DNA of 64,000 nt from a bacterium (GTDB taxonomy: Bacteria > Myxococcota_A > Polyangia > HGW-17 > JAJRWW01): positions 125,309-189,308 of the forward strand of contig JBDRSE010000156.1 in NCBI GenBank assembly GCA_043825095.1, given 5' to 3'. The notes under the pieces were generated by a model that saw only the letters and a program-made list of their open reading frames with translations, did not search any database and was not told the DNA's origin. Position numbers and translations under genes: made by a program. Of the stretch, positions 36,363 to 43,124 are shown in pieces (position 1 is the first letter of the stretch; each line of letters starts with the position of its first letter).

Positions 36363-36367
36363 AATCG

Positions 36368-36440
36368 TGAGCCCAGAAGGAATCGAACCTTCAACCTCCG
36401 GATTAAGAGTCCGCTGCTCTGCCAATTGAGCTATGGGCCC
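36368..36440 (-). tRNA. tRNA-Lys (anticodon CTT)
   Basis: Reverse complement GGGCCCATAGCTCAATTGGCAGAGCAGCGGACTCTTAATCCG...GGTTCGATTCC; loop cTCTTaa. Confidence 0.85.
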
Positions 36441-36457
36441 AGAGCAAGTTTTTAGTG

Positions 36458-36531
36458 CGCGCCCGGGGTGACTCGAACACCCGACCTGCGGATTCGAAGT
36501 CCGACGCTCTATCCAACTGAGCTACGGGCGC
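36458..36531 (-). tRNA. tRNA-Arg (anticodon TCG)
   Basis: Reverse complement GCGCCCGTAGCTCAGTTGGATAGAGCGTCGGACTTCGAATCCG...GGTGTTCGAGTCACC; loop cTTCGaa. Confidence 0.85.
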
Positions 36532-36748: not shown

Positions 36749-39700
36749 ATGAACACTGTTTACTTGAGCACTCAGAGGTCTAACATGCGGAGAAATAAAG
36801 CCCTGAAGTGGGCAATCAGCGTTGTTTTCATCTTTGCCGTGGGCGCGAGCTGCAACTCGTCGGGCTGCGAGATCCTGCAGCCGATGCCGGACGGCAACGA
36901 GGTGCCGCCGAATCAGACCATCGAAGGCGGCATGCAGGTGCGTGTCACGGCCGACGGGTTTGACAAGATCTCGTCGATCATCCCCGGGATCCTGGAGAAC
37001 TCCGGGCTGGGTGCCATCGAGCTCATCGCGCCCGGAACGCCGTTTGAGGTCGGCTCCTGCGGCACGATCGATTGGGCGTGCATCCGCTTCCAGTACTGCC
37101 CCACGGGTTGCGGCATCGATGTGTCCATCCCGCAGGGAGGGGTGGACATGTACGTCGACACGGCCTCCAACATGCTGATGTTGGATCTCACCATCGACGT
37201 CGCCTTTGTGCTGGATGCGCACCTCGAAATCGACATCATGAACTTCAGCGTCCTCGACATTACCTGTGGGCTCGGGCTGACGACCTTGGACGGCCCCCTC
37301 CACGTGACCGTGGGCATCGAGCCCTATATCCGCCCCGAGGACGGCGAGCTGCGGATTCGGCTTGGTCACCTCTCCAACCTGGACATCAGCGGCTTCAACC
37401 TCAGTCTCCAAGGTTGCGGCATCGTCGGGGACTACCTCAACACGTACCTCGACTACGTCAACGACATCATCGACATCATCGATTCCATCCTCGGGAACGC
37501 CATCACCGACTTCATCATGAACCAGTTCCTCCTGCCGATGGTGGGCGATATGATCGACGGCTTCGTGCCCGACCCCCTGGGGCTCGAGGGACAGTTCGAC
37601 GTCGGCTCGCTGCTGGCGGGCTTCTCGCCCGGCGCCGAGGGCGTTTTGGAGCTGCGCCTCACCCCGGGAGGCTACGTCAACCTGCTCGGCAACGGCATGA
37701 GCCTGGGGGTGATCACCGGTGTCAACAGCGACGCTGATCCCACCACCCGCAGCGCGACCCTGGATCCGGCCACAGGTGTGCGGATGCACTCCGAGCCGCA
37801 CCGCAAGATGCCGCCCATGCCCACTCCGGACTTCACCGGTGTGCTGGCCTCGGCGCCGGCGCGCAGCGCCCTGTCGGGGACGCCGTTCAAGCTGGACGCC
37901 GCGAGCGAGCTGGGCGGCTTCAACGACAGCCAGTACCTGCGGTACAAGGACCCCAACAGCCCGCTCAACAACCAGATCGCTGACCTCGCCATCGGCACGC
38001 CCGAGACGTTCCTCGACCTCCTGGGCTTCCACCTGCTCAACTCCGGCGCGCTGTGCCTGGAGATCGGGACCCAGGAGGTGGACATGCTCACCGTCGGGCT
38101 GTTCAGCATCATGGTCAGCTCCCTGGGCGATCTCGTGGATCCCCTGGTGGGGGACGCGCCCATGCGGCTGGTGATCCGGCCGCAGACGCCCATGGACTTC
38201 TGGATCGGCAACCCGTTGGACCAGGCCAACCCCACCCCGCTTTTGAACCTGTATCTGCAGGACTTCCAGATCGACATGTACGCGTGGTCCGAGGAGCGGT
38301 ACACCCGCGCGTTCACCATGGCGGTGGACATGGAGCTCGGCCTGAACCTATTGAGCGAGGTGGACCCGAACGACGGGACCCTCTATCTCAAGCCGGTTCT
38401 GGAGGACGTAAACGCCTCGGACCTGACCGTGCGGATCCACAACAGCGAGCTCATCGGCGACAGCCCGGAGGAGCTCGAGGCGCTCTTCCCGAGCGTGCTG
38501 TCGATGCTCATGCCGATGATCACCGGGATGCTGCCCGACATCGCCATGCCGGAGCTCATGGGGCTCTCCATGGAGTACCTGGAGTTCCGCCCCAACGACG
38601 CCCAGAACATGATGTTGATCCTCGCGAACATCAAGCTGCCGTCGAACCCGGTTCCCCCGGCGCCGGTGCCCGTGCTGCCGGTGCGCACCAGCGCCGAGCT
38701 GGTGGACGTCTACGTGCCCACACCGGCCGAGTGGCGCCGCTCCCAGCTGGACGAGAGCGTGCCGGCCGCGGAGAAGGACGTCCCCACGGTGCGCATCGCC
38801 GTGAACACCCGGACCGCCGATTCGAGCCTTGTGGAGTGGCAGTACCGGCTGAACGCCGGCGCCTGGCGCGGGTTCCGCCCCGGACCGGAGCTGGTGCTCA
38901 CGGACCAGACCTTCACTTTCCAGGGCTGGCACCACATCGAGGTGCGCGGTCGGGTGCGCGGAGAGCCCCGCTCCCTGGAACGGCAGCCGGTGAGCTTCGA
39001 CGTGCTGATCGACTCCACGCCGCCCCTGCAGAAGGCCACCGTGGAGGACGACACCCTGATCTTCAACGGCTTCGACCTGGTGACCGCGCGGACCGAGCTT
39101 CGGTACTCCTACGAGTTCGAGCCGGGGAACTACTCGTCCTGGTCTGATCGGGGGTCGATGCCCCTGTCCCGGGCGCGGACCCTGGCCAAGGCCCACGGCG
39201 GCGTGCTTCGGGTGCGGGTGATGGACGAGGCGGGCAACGTCTCTGAGGCCGAAATCGACGAGTCCTTGATGGGCGCGGTGAACGTGGATCCCAAGGTGGG
39301 CGGGTGCGGCTGCGCCACGTCCGGCAACGGTGAGGTGCCCTTCGCGGTGCTGTTCCTTGGACTTCTGGGGGTGCTGTTTTTTCGGCGCGGCCGGTCGGCG
39401 AGGCCGGCCGGCGCGCTCCTCGTAGTCGGTGTGGCCGCGCTGCTCGCCCTCGGCGGCTGCGCGAAAAAGGCGGGCGCCGGGGACCCGGACGCCACGGTGA
39501 CCGTGCCCTGCACCGATGATGACGAGTGCGTGGCCCTGCAGTGCGAGGACGATCAGATCCCGCTCTGCATCGACGGTGAGTGTCAGTGCATGGACGATCT
39601 GTTGTTCGGCAAGACCGGCCCGTACACGTCGCTGTCCGTGTCGTACAGCGACGTGATGGTGGCGGCGTACAACACCCGGTACGGCGACCTGATGTACGGC

Positions 39701-40975
39701 CACATCAGCAAGAACGACATCGGCTCGAACCCCATCATCACCAACTGGGAGTTCGTCGACGGTGTGCCGTGGGACCAGGATCCCGACGTGCCGACCTCGG
39801 AGATCCGGGGCGGCATCCGGACCAAGGGCGACAACGTGGGGCGGTTCACGTCCATCGGCACCGACGACAGCGGCCAGCCCGTGATCGCCTACTACGACGT
39901 CACCCACGGCGCGCTCAAGATCGCCCGCCACGACGGCACCAACTGGCAGATCTTCGTGGTGGATGACGGAGGGAACTCCGAGTCGGCCGAGGGCGGCGAC
40001 GCGGGTCGGTACACGTCGATGTCCATGCGGCCCTCTGACCGGGCGCCGGGAGTGGCGTATCTGGTGCAGGATCTGCCGTCGAACGACACCAGCGCCACCA
40101 TCACCCAGGTGCGCTTCGCCCAGGCCATCACGGCCAGCCCCATGAGCGGCGCGGACTGGATGATCTACATCGTGGACGAGCTGGCGGTGCCCGTTCTGGC
40201 CGACGACGCTCCGCTGCCCGACCTGCCCATGGGCGTCGGCGTCACCACGTCCGTGGATCGCACCTCGGACGGCCGGCCGGTGGTGGTGTACTACGACTCC
40301 TACAACGGCAACCTCAAGGGCGCGGAGTTCGACGACGCCAGCCAGCAGTTCTTCCCGCCCATCATCCTCGACGGCGACGACGGCGCGGGCACCGACACCG
40401 GCAACGTCGGCCTGTCCCCGTCGGTCCGGATCCGGGGCGACGACACGGTGTGGCACGTGAGCTACATGGACGCCGCGCTCAAGCAGCTGCTCTACCTGCG
40501 CACGGGCGCCGACTCCATTATCGAGGTGGTGGACGATGGCCTGCGCGAGGAGGTCAACGATCTCACCGGGCTCCCCATGCCGATCTCCCACTTCGTGGGC
40601 TACGACTCCAAGATCACCGTGGCGGGCAGCAGCCCCGATCCGGCCCAGAACAAGGTCTTCATCGCCTACAGCGACTCCACGACCCACGAGCTGCTCTGGG
40701 CCGTGCGGGACCCGGCCGCGCCCACGCCGTGGATCACCAGCTCGATCATCGGCGGCGACCCGGCCATCTGGAACTCCTCCCTCGCGCGGTTCGAGGACAG
40801 CTATGGCGAGCCCTGGCAGGGCGCCTACGGCTTCTACGTCGGCCTCGTCGACGACCAGACCACCGCGTACCTCTGCTCCTACGCCATCAACGAGTGGGCC
40901 GAGTCGGACCTCTTCGGCAACGCACCCCTCAACTACTGGGTGCAGATCTTCGCCAAGGCGCTGTCCGAAGGCTAA
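36749..40975 (+). CDS. Giant (1408 aa) secreted/surface protein: N-terminal extracellular part ending in a MYXO-CTERM-like motif, continuing in-frame into a lipoprotein-signal-like segment and a C-terminal repeat (YYD..G.LK) beta-propeller-like region
   Basis: ATG with RBS gggag; signal-like N-terminus; internal GGCGCATSGNGEVPFAVLFLGLLGVLFFRRGR (MYXO-CTERM pattern) at ~39300-39400 followed without stop by SARPAGALLVVGVAALLALGGC (lipobox). Confidence 0.55.
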   Translation: MNTVYLSTQRSNMRRNKALKWAISVVFIFAVGASCNSSGCEILQPMPDGNEVPPNQTIEGGMQVRVTADGFDKISSIIPGILENSGLGAIELIAPGTPFEVGSCGTIDWACIRFQYCPTGCGIDVSIPQGGVDMYVDTASNMLMLDLTIDVAFVLDAHLEIDIMNFSVLDITCGLGLTTLDGPLHVTVGIEPYIRPEDGELRIRLGHLSNLDISGFNLSLQGCGIVGDYLNTYLDYVNDIIDIIDSILGNAITDFIMNQFLLPMVGDMIDGFVPDPLGLEGQFDVGSLLAGFSPGAEGVLELRLTPGGYVNLLGNGMSLGVITGVNSDADPTTRSATLDPATGVRMHSEPHRKMPPMPTPDFTGVLASAPARSALSGTPFKLDAASELGGFNDSQYLRYKDPNSPLNNQIADLAIGTPETFLDLLGFHLLNSGALCLEIGTQEVDMLTVGLFSIMVSSLGDLVDPLVGDAPMRLVIRPQTPMDFWIGNPLDQANPTPLLNLYLQDFQIDMYAWSEERYTRAFTMAVDMELGLNLLSEVDPNDGTLYLKPVLEDVNASDLTVRIHNSELIGDSPEELEALFPSVLSMLMPMITGMLPDIAMPELMGLSMEYLEFRPNDAQNMMLILANIKLPSNPVPPAPVPVLPVRTSAELVDVYVPTPAEWRRSQLDESVPAAEKDVPTVRIAVNTRTADSSLVEWQYRLNAGAWRGFRPGPELVLTDQTFTFQGWHHIEVRGRVRGEPRSLERQPVSFDVLIDSTPPLQKATVEDDTLIFNGFDLVTARTELRYSYEFEPGNYSSWSDRGSMPLSRARTLAKAHGGVLRVRVMDEAGNVSEAEIDESLMGAVNVDPKVGGCGCATSGNGEVPFAVLFLGLLGVLFFRRGRSARPAGALLVVGVAALLALGGCAKKAGAGDPDATVTVPCTDDDECVALQCEDDQIPLCIDGECQCMDDLLFGKTGPYTSLSVSYSDVMVAAYNTRYGDLMYGHISKNDIGSNPIITNWEFVDGVPWDQDPDVPTSEIRGGIRTKGDNVGRFTSIGTDDSGQPVIAYYDVTHGALKIARHDGTNWQIFVVDDGGNSESAEGGDAGRYTSMSMRPSDRAPGVAYLVQDLPSNDTSATITQVRFAQAITASPMSGADWMIYIVDELAVPVLADDAPLPDLPMGVGVTTSVDRTSDGRPVVVYYDSYNGNLKGAEFDDASQQFFPPIILDGDDGAGTDTGNVGLSPSVRIRGDDTVWHVSYMDAALKQLLYLRTGADSIIEVVDDGLREEVNDLTGLPMPISHFVGYDSKITVAGSSPDPAQNKVFIAYSDSTTHELLWAVRDPAAPTPWITSSIIGGDPAIWNSSLARFEDSYGEPWQGAYGFYVGLVDDQTTAYLCSYAINEWAESDLFGNAPLNYWVQIFAKALSEG

Positions 40976-42365: not shown

Positions 42366-43124
42366 CTAGGGATAGACGTTGTCGATGCACAGGGCGGTGT
42401 CGTCCGTGGCCAGGGTGCACCAGTAGTCCACGCCCTGTCCTTCGTCGGTGCACCAGGGGTGGAGATCCTGCAGGCTCACGGTCTCCGACCCGGCGAGGGT
42501 GTCGGTGACGCAGCCGCTGTGACTGACCCCGTCAGACTGGCAGAACAGGCAGTAGATCGCGTCGGCCACCGTGTTGGAGACTACGCCCTCGATCAGGCTG
42601 CCGCCCGTGCCGCAGGCGCCCCCGGCGATCGCGCTCACGGCGGGGACGCGGTAGTTGCAGTCGTCCGAGCAGTAGTCGACATAGGGGCTGCCCACGGGCG
42701 CGCAGGCCCGGTCCCATCCCCCGAGGCTCACGCAGCACAGGCTGTCGCACGTGCTGTCATCGATGCAGCTGGGCGAGCAGGTGGCGGGATAGTTCGGCGG
42801 ATCGCCGATACACAGCTCGTCGCTCTCACAGGTCTCGCTGCCGCAAGTCCCGGGCTGTCCGAACTCGGCACAGGAGTGCGCAGTGCACCAGCTCGCCTCG
42901 ACGCAGACGCCGGCCCCGCCGTTGTCGGCGCACACCTCGGTGGGTCCACAGTCGCCGCTGTCGTCACAGTCGGCCCCCTGGACGCAGTCGCCGAGCAGGC
43001 AGATCTCGGACGTGCCGTCAGACTCCGGACAGCCGCCGAGGCTCAACACGGCCACCAGGCCGACCGCCCCGAGCGCCGTCCGCAGGCCCGCGCCCCTGGC
43101 CCGCGCTGTTTTCGAAATGCTCAT
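42366..43124 (-). CDS. Cys-rich secreted lipoprotein
   Basis: Signal peptide + lipobox LGGC; ~40 Cys in 250 aa. Confidence 0.5.
   Translation of the reverse strand: MSISKTARARGAGLRTALGAVGLVAVLSLGGCPESDGTSEICLLGDCVQGADCDDSGDCGPTEVCADNGGAGVCVEASWCTAHSCAEFGQPGTCGSETCESDELCIGDPPNYPATCSPSCIDDSTCDSLCCVSLGGWDRACAPVGSPYVDYCSDDCNYRVPAVSAIAGGACGTGGSLIEGVVSNTVADAIYCLFCQSDGVSHSGCVTDTLAGSETVSLQDLHPWCTDEGQGVDYWCTLATDDTALCIDNVYP

Follow-up and report, generated by a model that had tools for sequence, protein, structure and literature searches.

Can a C-terminal sorting tag and an N-terminal lipoprotein signal both work in the middle of a single polypeptide chain? This question is raised by a large gene in a 64,000-nucleotide stretch of contig JBDRSE010000156.1 (assembly GCA_043825095.1; the whole stretch is called the window here, and positions are counted from its first letter). 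In this gene a MYXO-CTERM tag is followed, in frame and without a stop codon, by a lipoprotein signal peptide and a second protein module. We propose that the gene may be described as an envelope 'polyprotein', present as one chain here and as two overlapping genes in some relatives, the product of which is probably cut at both motifs.

MYXO-CTERM tags belong to the MYXO-CTERM/myxosortase sorting system, of which TraA of Myxococcus xanthus is an example (PMC11980579; Haft preprint 10.1101/2023.06.07.544157), and they are cut by the myxosortase MrtX in a Cys-dependent manner (Guo, Haft & Wall 2025, PMC11980579).

Two sorting motifs at one junction

The sequence in question lies where the initial annotation had placed it, within an open reading frame (ORF) of 1408 amino acids (aa) on the forward strand. 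The features on which the argument turns are the following.

36749..40975, forward strand: the whole ORF, 1408 aa from its first ATG, with a GC content of 0.62/0.44/0.92 at the three codon positions.
36785..36853, forward strand: an N-terminal lipoprotein-type signal peptide, MRRNKALKWAISVVFIFAVGAS leading up to a Cys, recognised from its sequence and the conservation of Cys35.
39299..39394, forward strand: the internal MYXO-CTERM tag, GGCGCATSGNGEVPFAVLFLGLLGVLFFRRGR, aa 851-882, recognised from its TIGR03901 match and the conserved Cys855 and Arg879.
39395..39460, forward strand: the internal lipoprotein signal peptide, SARPAGALLVVGVAALLALGGC, aa 883-904, recognised from the invariant Cys904 and the PS00013 core.

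The junction reads ...VDPKVGGCGCATSGNGEVPFAVLFLGLLGVLFFRRGR-SARPAGALLVVGVAALLALGGC-AKKAG.... Its frame is free of stops, the other two forward frames are closed by stops, and GC content at third codon positions (GC3) is 0.86 at the junction and 0.91 and 0.95 in its flanks. In the NCBI annotation the same gene starts at Met13 (36785) and encodes a protein of 1396 aa (MFH2007353.1), which is named solely by its tag, as a 'MYXO-CTERM sorting domain-containing protein'.

The tag is composed of a GGCGC signature (Cys853 and Cys855), a hydrophobic helix (TM1, aa 863-878) and a basic cluster (RRGR, aa 879-882), in the order characteristic of MYXO-CTERM signatures, namely Cys, then transmembrane helix, then Arg-rich cluster. 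Over aa 851-882 the score of the NCBIfam model TIGR03901 is 20.2 bits when the whole protein is scanned and rises to 23.4-24.6 bits for short fragments; with a curated cutoff of 20 bits, the tag of the ORF passes, but barely. In relatives, the model matches 35 of 51 junction fragments at E <= 0.01, with a top score of 35.7 bits. No second, terminal MYXO-CTERM tag was found in the 64-kb window. The N-terminal signal expected of MYXO-CTERM proteins is present in the ORF as MRRNKALKWAISVVFIFAVGAS followed by Cys, judged by eye and with a PROSITE-type pattern, and Cys35 is predicted from this sequence to be the lipidated first residue of the mature N-module.

The internal lipoprotein signal begins where the tag ends, its n-region extending the basic cluster of the tag (RRGR-SAR-P). 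The elements of a lipoprotein signal, namely a basic n-region, an uncharged h-region and a lipobox of the form [LVI]-x-[GAS]-C, are represented by RRGRSAR, by the h/c region AGALLVVGVAALLALGG of 17 uncharged aa, and by L-G-G-C, in which Cys904 is encoded at 39458-39460. The core of the PROSITE lipobox pattern PS00013 is matched, and in its strict form also fits 52 of the 80 related loci described below. The Cys of a lipoprotein signal is expected within the first ~35 residues and is here residue 904; the homologous signal does have the N-terminal position in the stand-alone C-module proteins P0093, P0098, P0100 and P0101. Both motif assignments made in the initial annotation, MYXO-CTERM tag and lipoprotein signal, are thus borne out by the TIGR03901 cutoff reached, the PS00013 core matched and the conservation of their residues.

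AlphaFold 2 (AF2) models two helices at the junction, aa 866-879 and aa 890-901. The same region, from TM1 through the basic loop to the second hydrophobic stretch (TM2; aa 866-916, nt 39344-39496), gives sub-threshold matches to NCBIfam NF058595 ('invert_tail', a 'lipo-invert putative C-terminal anchoring domain'), with 14.5 bits in the ORF and 25.1 bits in the best relative (model positions ~24-85 of 113) against a cutoff of 37. One relative matches NCBIfam NF033207 ('midcut-by-XrtH') weakly, with 15 bits against a cutoff of 45.

Conservation of the fused junction

A genome scan with a profile built from a 14-sequence alignment (a 50-sequence alignment being too diverse) revealed 170 Myxococcota genomes that encode a relative. 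The junction was examined in the best 80 loci, all from metagenome-assembled genomes (MAGs) and labelled Kofleriaceae, Haliangiales, Polyangia, Myxococcales or more broadly, and in 80/80 of these both halves stand in one frame with no intervening stop. A word-indexed protein search returned 90 homologs, ~73 of which are single proteins of 1250-1440 aa with 87-99% query coverage. In the full-length members inspected the order of parts is invariant: Cys motif, hydrophobic helix, Arg cluster, basic linker, second hydrophobic stretch, lipobox Cys, Cys-rich domain and repeat domain. All relatives that could be traced to a genome belong to the Myxococcota.

The residues on which lipidation and sorting would depend are conserved as well. 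In an alignment of 50 homologs with 23-72% identity to the ORF protein, Cys904 is invariant (50/50, and 51/51 junction fragments), and Cys855, Arg879 and Cys35 are each at least 90% conserved. The linker that follows TM1 varies freely in length, from 4 to 41 aa (median 16), and its net charge is always positive (+3 to +14, median +7); the uncharged run ahead of the lipobox Cys measures 13-23 aa (median 19), which is the length of a signal peptide. These statistics cover 66 of 81 junctions, as 15 could not be parsed by the script. The combination of free linker length, strict positive charge and strict cysteines fits a loop that stays in the cytoplasm, flanked by a helix that stops transfer and a lipoprotein signal that starts export anew.

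A junction regular expression, run in six frames on 1.1 Mb of fetched sequence, matched only this gene family. Since the two-part junction is found in 80/80 loci, has conserved cysteines and Arg, and is restricted to one family in this search, it exceeds chance. A stop-loss lesion, as suspected in the initial annotation, finds no support, and neither does an error in the stretch near 39380-39400: the fused form is intact in all 80 loci and commoner than the others among family representatives. The initial annotation had also held that its reading would fall if orthologs were consistently single proteins of this size, with the same internal segment and no MYXO-CTERM profile homology; orthologs are indeed single proteins of ~1300-1400 aa with the internal segment, but the profile homology is present (35/51).

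Split, fused and N-half-only forms in relatives

Some relatives encode the same two modules as separate genes. On the contigs L008 and L009, from two independent read sets, an 885-aa N-module gene with an N-terminal lipoprotein-type signal ends in ...GGCGCEVAARRGGGDEALGWLSALALGGLVVTRRRRWAQGRGAARGREAGLA and a stop, a tail that is a terminal GGCGC-TM-RRRR. This gene overlaps by 8 nt a 482-aa gene, the product of which (P0093) begins MRSTFVLLCALALGGALCPGC (MRSTFVLLCALALGGALCPGCNC...) and is 39% identical to the C-module of the ORF over 486 residues. Similarly, in L010 (GCA_041309385.1) a 969-aa N-module gene with a Cys-helix-Arg tail overlaps, through an ATGA, a 586-aa lipoprotein gene (P0100), the product of which is 27% identical to the same C-module. 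In both cases the two genes meet precisely at the transition from MYXO-CTERM tag to lipoprotein signal, and the split-form N-module genes start with the same type of lipoprotein signal as the ORF. Further stand-alone C-module proteins that start with lipoprotein signals are P0098 and P0101, and the ORF upstream of P0101 ends at its start codon. On the JGI contigs of P0087, P0078 and P0101 a gene of the right size adjoins upstream or downstream, a candidate partner module judged by its size and position.

Other relatives possess the N-half only, as in L001, L002 and L003, where N-module genes end in the tag with no adjoining C-module. The tag is truly C-terminal in the split and N-half-only relatives alike. 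Two N-module genes considered as split forms (P0075/L005 and P0079/L006) were classed as N-half-only, there being no C-module homolog on their short contigs. A third candidate, P0077/L007, was rejected: in this long-read assembly the MYXO-CTERM can be read in another frame, between two compensating frameshifts (L007 5400-5900; ENA ERZ25039521 contig_38895), at which gene callers split the protein and lose the tag.

An exhaustive phmmer search with the N-module as query against 1.84 billion cluster representatives gave 858 matches at E <= 1e-3 and 203 at E <= 1e-30. The best 150 were classed by script as follows.

Fused: 76 of the best 150 cluster representatives.
N-module with a terminal Cys-helix-Arg tail (N-half-only): 44 of the best 150.
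Truncated fused: 4 of the best 150.
Fragments or unclear: 26 of the best 150.

On a rough, quick neighbour-joining tree the N-modules of fused, split and N-half-only forms interleave, which suggests that fusion or fission has crossed the same boundary more than once, as would be expected if the mature products were the same. The initial annotation had asked whether orthologs are one gene or two, and the answer is both: one in 80/80 loci among the best 80 of 170 genomes, and two overlapping genes in L008/L009 and L010. Its proposal of a fusion of two adjacent surface-protein genes agrees with these overlapping-gene relatives, but not in the form of a stop-loss lesion.

Near P0078 (JGI 3300047160; an 813-aa N-module with an adjoining 474-aa gene), a gene for an Rce1-like CPBP protease (PF02517) lies ~3.5 kb downstream. 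It could be a myxosortase candidate, and this neighbour is not conserved across the 80 genome loci.

Predicted folds of the two modules

The modules on either side of the junction have been assigned from AF2 models and Foldseek comparisons, and comprise the following features.

36908..38650, forward strand: a double TULIP, BPI/LBP/CETP-like, at ~aa 54-329 and 409-634, predicted by AF2 model and Foldseek (boundaries approximate).
38687..39280, forward strand: two Ig/FN3-like beta-sandwiches, at ~aa 647-744 and 748-844, predicted by AF2, with FN3-type Foldseek matches at E ~1e-3 to 1e-4 (boundaries approximate).
39509..39589, forward strand: a small Cys-rich domain, CTDDDECVALQCEDDQIPLCIDGECQC, aa 921-947, with six Cys, each at least 90% conserved.
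39590..40960, forward strand: a beta-propeller, predicted by AF2 and Foldseek, the blades of which carry a repeat of the type Y-x-D...L-K/R-x-A.

The N-module model (md92a968fa3ed; pLDDT 86, pTM 0.80) consists of two tandem TULIP barrels, in each of which a curved sheet wraps around a long helix, and, after them, two Ig/FN3-like sandwiches. Its Foldseek matches in the PDB are human BPI (1bp1, E 1.2e-17, TM 0.60 on target), LBP (4m4d), CETP (2obd) and clostridial (botulinum) P47/OrfX. At the level of sequence profiles, the N-module matched nothing in Pfam, including its LBP/BPI/CETP families, or in NCBIfam. From the modelled fold, a lipid-handling role at the envelope is plausible.

In the C-module model (m1e0856d15b12; pLDDT 88, above 90 in the propeller) a six-Cys mini-domain precedes a propeller which, counting its repeats, probably has seven blades. 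Photorhabdus lectins PHL/PLL are the best Foldseek matches in the PDB (E 2e-10, TM up to 0.69 on target), followed by sialidase-like propellers, and the resemblance of the model to both is one of fold only. The initial annotation had described this part as a generic repeat domain of 530 aa; it is better described as a beta-propeller with a small Cys-rich domain in front, with 504 aa after Cys904. Neither module has a Pfam family match above the weak PF07127. The Cys-rich mini-domain gives weak plant NCR/nodulin-like matches (PF07127, 15-17 bits; PDB 7th8, E 0.003), a likeness which most likely reflects shared cysteine spacing, and a search of the family profile against PDB sequences gave only a weak NCR-peptide match, to this same domain.

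A proposed processing pathway

Taken together, the two motifs suggest that one Sec-inserted precursor is probably cut by LspA at Cys904 and by a myxosortase at the tag, giving two lipid-anchored proteins and a discarded hairpin. Such a pathway can be put forward, step by step, from the rules of membrane topology, from the known maturation of lipoproteins and from the MYXO-CTERM model of PMC11980579. The N-terminal lipoprotein signal would bring the chain to Sec, and the TULIP module and the two Ig-like domains would be translocated until the MYXO-CTERM helix (aa 863-878) halts transfer and leaves the Arg-rich loop in the cytoplasm. The hydrophobic stretch aa 887-903 would then re-insert in the manner of a signal peptide, with its N-end in and its C-end out, so that the propeller module is translocated in turn. 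Lgt would lipidate Cys904 and LspA would cut ahead of it, making the propeller an ordinary lipoprotein, and Cys35 would be handled likewise by Lgt and LspA. At the tag, Cys855 and/or Cys853 would be modified and the myxosortase (MrtX) would cut after the tag cysteine, so that the TULIP module would be set free carrying an anchor at its C-terminus and could be delivered to the surface in the way described for TraA. A hairpin of ~48 aa, comprising TM1, the basic loop and the h-region of the signal, would remain behind in the inner membrane and be broken down. Overall, a lipid-binding module and its probable propeller partner would be supplied in equimolar amounts and at the same place.

The strongest arguments for two cuts are evolutionary. 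This reading is favoured because the loop drifts whereas the cysteines on either side of it are retained, and because relatives encode the same polypeptides as separate, translationally coupled genes. In its full form, the proposal is that of a natural envelope polyprotein, on which Lgt/LspA would act at the internal lipobox and a CPBP-type myxosortase at the internal MYXO-CTERM; the products would be two lipid-anchored proteins at a ratio of 1:1 and an excised two-helix peptide, with the BPI-like module anchored at both ends and probably surface-exposed beside its propeller partner. We give this full form about an even chance of being correct.

Several points weigh against two-cut processing. 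The TIGR03901 score of the ORF itself (20.2) lies only just at the cutoff of 20, and the tag is not at the C-terminus, where MYXO-CTERM tags are expected: 526 residues follow it, and it is likewise non-terminal in 80/80 loci. AF2 confidence is low for the two junction helices (pLDDT ~50-65). In 28 of the 80 relatives a Pro at lipobox position -2 (L-V/A-P-G-C) falls outside the strict PROSITE core, although this is not counted against the lipobox because the stand-alone P0093 has the same Pro. The genes mrtX and lgt, lspA and type II secretion genes were not seen in the 64-kb window, where a CPBP/Rce1-like enzyme was not searched for, and no sorting enzyme is found among the conserved neighbours of the 80 genome loci; that this genome has the sorting machinery is assumed from its apparent phylum, itself judged by its Myxococcota relatives. 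Cleavage at either site is something that we infer from sequence, and LspA is presumed to accept, in these organisms, a signal that is tethered to a preceding transmembrane helix.

Alternative explanations

The product could instead remain uncut and sit in the inner membrane by a hairpin of two helices (TM1 and TM2, joined by the basic loop), with both modules periplasmic and the motifs as relics of fusion. The topology would be the same as that of the precursor in the two-cut model, AF2 does model two helices (aa 866-879 and 890-901), and the sub-threshold NF058595 matches span exactly TM1, loop and TM2, a hint that similar hairpins are seen as anchors elsewhere. It is not obvious, however, why a hairpin anchor should require an invariant Cys at the lipobox position or a conserved Cys ahead of TM1, and relic motifs would be expected to decay over a divergence of 23-72% identity. 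Furthermore, repeated exchange with two separately exported genes is easier to understand if the mature products are the same. A two-module protein on a helical hairpin had been offered as an alternative in the initial annotation; it describes the likely topology of the precursor, but explains the strict cysteines and the gene interchange less well than processing does, and we consider it unlikely as the final state.

Equally unlikely in our view is a single cut, in which, for example, LspA frees the propeller while the TULIP module stays on the hairpin and the non-terminal tag is inactive, or the converse. The strict invariance of Cys904 beside a tag Cys that is 'only' at least 90% conserved would agree with this, as would the 16 of 51 junction fragments that miss E <= 0.01 for TIGR03901; in the literature, too, processing of internal MYXO-CTERM tags is so far a proposal. 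Against inactivity of the tag, its Cys, helix and Arg cluster are kept in every inspected member, many members have TIGR03901 scores well over the cutoff, the highest being 35.7 bits, and PMC11980579 refers to experimental precedents from other systems in which sorting tags are internal.

The C-module could also be made at least partly by internal initiation, for example at the GTG at 39371 (Val875 of the ORF) pointed out in the initial annotation, in which case the fusion would carry little weight. Initiation at this codon would yield M-LFFRRGRSARPAGALLVVGVAALLALGGC, a plausible lipoprotein signal, and in split relatives the second gene does start inside or at the end of the first. This explanation is highly improbable: there is no convincing Shine-Dalgarno sequence ahead of the GTG (the upstream sequence is TTCCTTGGACTTCTGGGG), and the open frame between the modules in 80/80 loci is left unexplained. 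Internal initiation can, in any case, add to two-cut processing rather than replace it.

Finally, although the window apparently comes from a MAG and the seemingly split relative L007 does carry assembly frameshifts, an artefactual fusion (a stop or frameshift missed in metagenome assembly) or a recent stop-loss is ruled out by the fused frame, which recurs in 80/80 independent genomes and in dozens of proteins from metagenomes with identities as low as 23%, by the continuous GC3 and by the closure of the other frames.

Relation to known systems

The ORF resembles substrates of the MYXO-CTERM/MrtX system such as TraA in its tripartite Cys-helix-Arg tag, its N-terminal signal peptide, its occurrence in Myxococcota and its TIGR03901 match. 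It differs in that 526 more residues, and not a stop codon, follow the tag; and cleavage and surface delivery are here proposed from the sequence. The nearest published case is MXAN_5598, which has an internal MYXO-CTERM and has been discussed as a probable gene fusion, the N-part of which is expected to be processed (PMC11980579). Judged by its description, MXAN_5598 is unrelated to the ORF protein and combines an adhesin with an outer-membrane beta-barrel/OmpA, and its account in PMC11980579 is silent on a lipoprotein signal after the tag, on family-wide conservation and on interchange with split forms. The same paper cites experimental precedents for internal LPXTG and PGF-CTERM-like tags. 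Among these is a Tat substrate of Haloferax volcanii, in which a PGF-CTERM-like structure that is not C-terminal is reported to be processed by ArtA (Abdul Halim et al. 2017, ref. 46 of PMC11980579). As cited there, this substrate is an experimental precedent for a sortase-type tag working away from the C-terminus, with a different sorting enzyme and a different tag.

With substrates of the lipoprotein pathway (Lgt, LspA, Lnt) the internal signal shares a basic n-region, a 17-aa hydrophobic region, L-G-G-C and an invariant Cys. Unlike theirs, it lies 880 residues into the chain and is tethered to a preceding transmembrane helix. No description of natural internal lipoboxes was found in the literature searched. 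Splitting of one gene product into two proteins at an internal signal peptide is familiar from bunyavirus Gn-Gc, flavivirus polyproteins and the Bradyrhizobium FbcH cytochrome b/c1 precursor. In these precursors, too, an internal signal peptide comes after a membrane anchor and a cytoplasmic loop, and a membrane protease then separates the products. They use signal peptidase I, whereas LspA and a CPBP-family myxosortase are predicted here, with both products lipid-anchored.

For the N-module, a parallel exists in TipA of Bdellovibrio, a BPI-like double TULIP that is bound and opened by its operon partner TipB (preprint 10.1101/2025.09.09.675085). TipA has the same fold class, comes from a predatory bacterium and has its partner gene adjacent; TipB differs from the C-module in being a small C2-like beta-sandwich and not a propeller, and the preprint (10.1101/2025.09.09.675085) makes no mention of 'lipoprotein' or 'lipobox'. 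TipA/TipB may be regarded as a functional parallel, not an established homology.

The names of NF058595 and NF033207 suggest that NCBI curators recognise sorting signals of a hairpin or mid-protein type, and their sub-threshold matches lie over TM1, basic loop and TM2; all scores are under the cutoffs (at most 25.1 vs 37, and 15 vs 45). No published description of either model was found in the literature searched. As no description of NF058595 was found, NCBI's unpublished curation may contain a closer precedent. In the same literature, no description was found of a junction of tag and lipoprotein signal or of its family, and an internal MYXO-CTERM had been noted once in print (MXAN_5598).

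Implications

If two-cut processing is correct, both signals, the sorting tag usual at C-termini and the lipoprotein signal usual at N-termini, would work mid-chain, and fusion or fission at such boundaries would be nearly neutral. Near-neutral fusion and fission would in turn mean that annotation blurs the counts of 'surface protein' and 'lipoprotein' genes in Myxococcota. The family would also provide matched natural pairs of fused and split forms for questions about myxosortase, namely the lipidating enzyme, the position of cleavage and the need for a free C-terminus, as well as a natural substrate on which the acceptance of tethered signals by LspA could be studied. If the product is not processed, it would be a plain hairpin-anchored two-domain membrane protein. 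With processing, the family would further point to a widespread, uncharacterised protein pair, a BPI-like double TULIP and a propeller; Myxococcota include predatory, membrane-exchanging bacteria, in which a role in envelope lipid binding or transfer would be relevant.

Gene setting and minor observations

No relevant conserved operon partners were found in the 64-kb window, and among the 80 loci an MltA-like neighbour is limited to one clade. In ~23 loci of this clade (L024 and ~22 others, Kofleriaceae-type) a gene for an MltA-like lytic transglycosylase follows the family gene; an MltA-like gene is also present at L007 7220-8446, and none lies beside the ORF in the window. This neighbour is probably a matter of clade-level synteny.

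The tag helix ends, in a genome of 66% GC, with a run of six T (Phe-Phe) at 39377-39382. Loss of one T would give ...LGVLFFGAAGRRGRPARSS and a stop at 39423, a terminal MYXO-CTERM-like tail, and would leave the downstream module without a good start codon. We regard the run as a curiosity that illustrates how close the fused and terminal forms are. A terminator-like hairpin at 39354-39371 was dismissed as a chance match (5 found vs 2.4 +/- 1.7 expected).

Immediately upstream of the ORF, the opposite strand carries tRNA-Lys(CTT) and tRNA-Arg(TCG) (36367-36531, reverse strand), after which a strong terminator-like hairpin follows on the same strand (36361-36334). Given these tRNAs and their terminator-like hairpin on the opposite strand, the large gene appears to be transcribed on its own. 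Approximately 1.4 kb downstream of it, on the other strand (42366-43124, reverse), a 252-aa Cys-rich predicted lipoprotein is encoded, with the signal ...AVLSLGGC.

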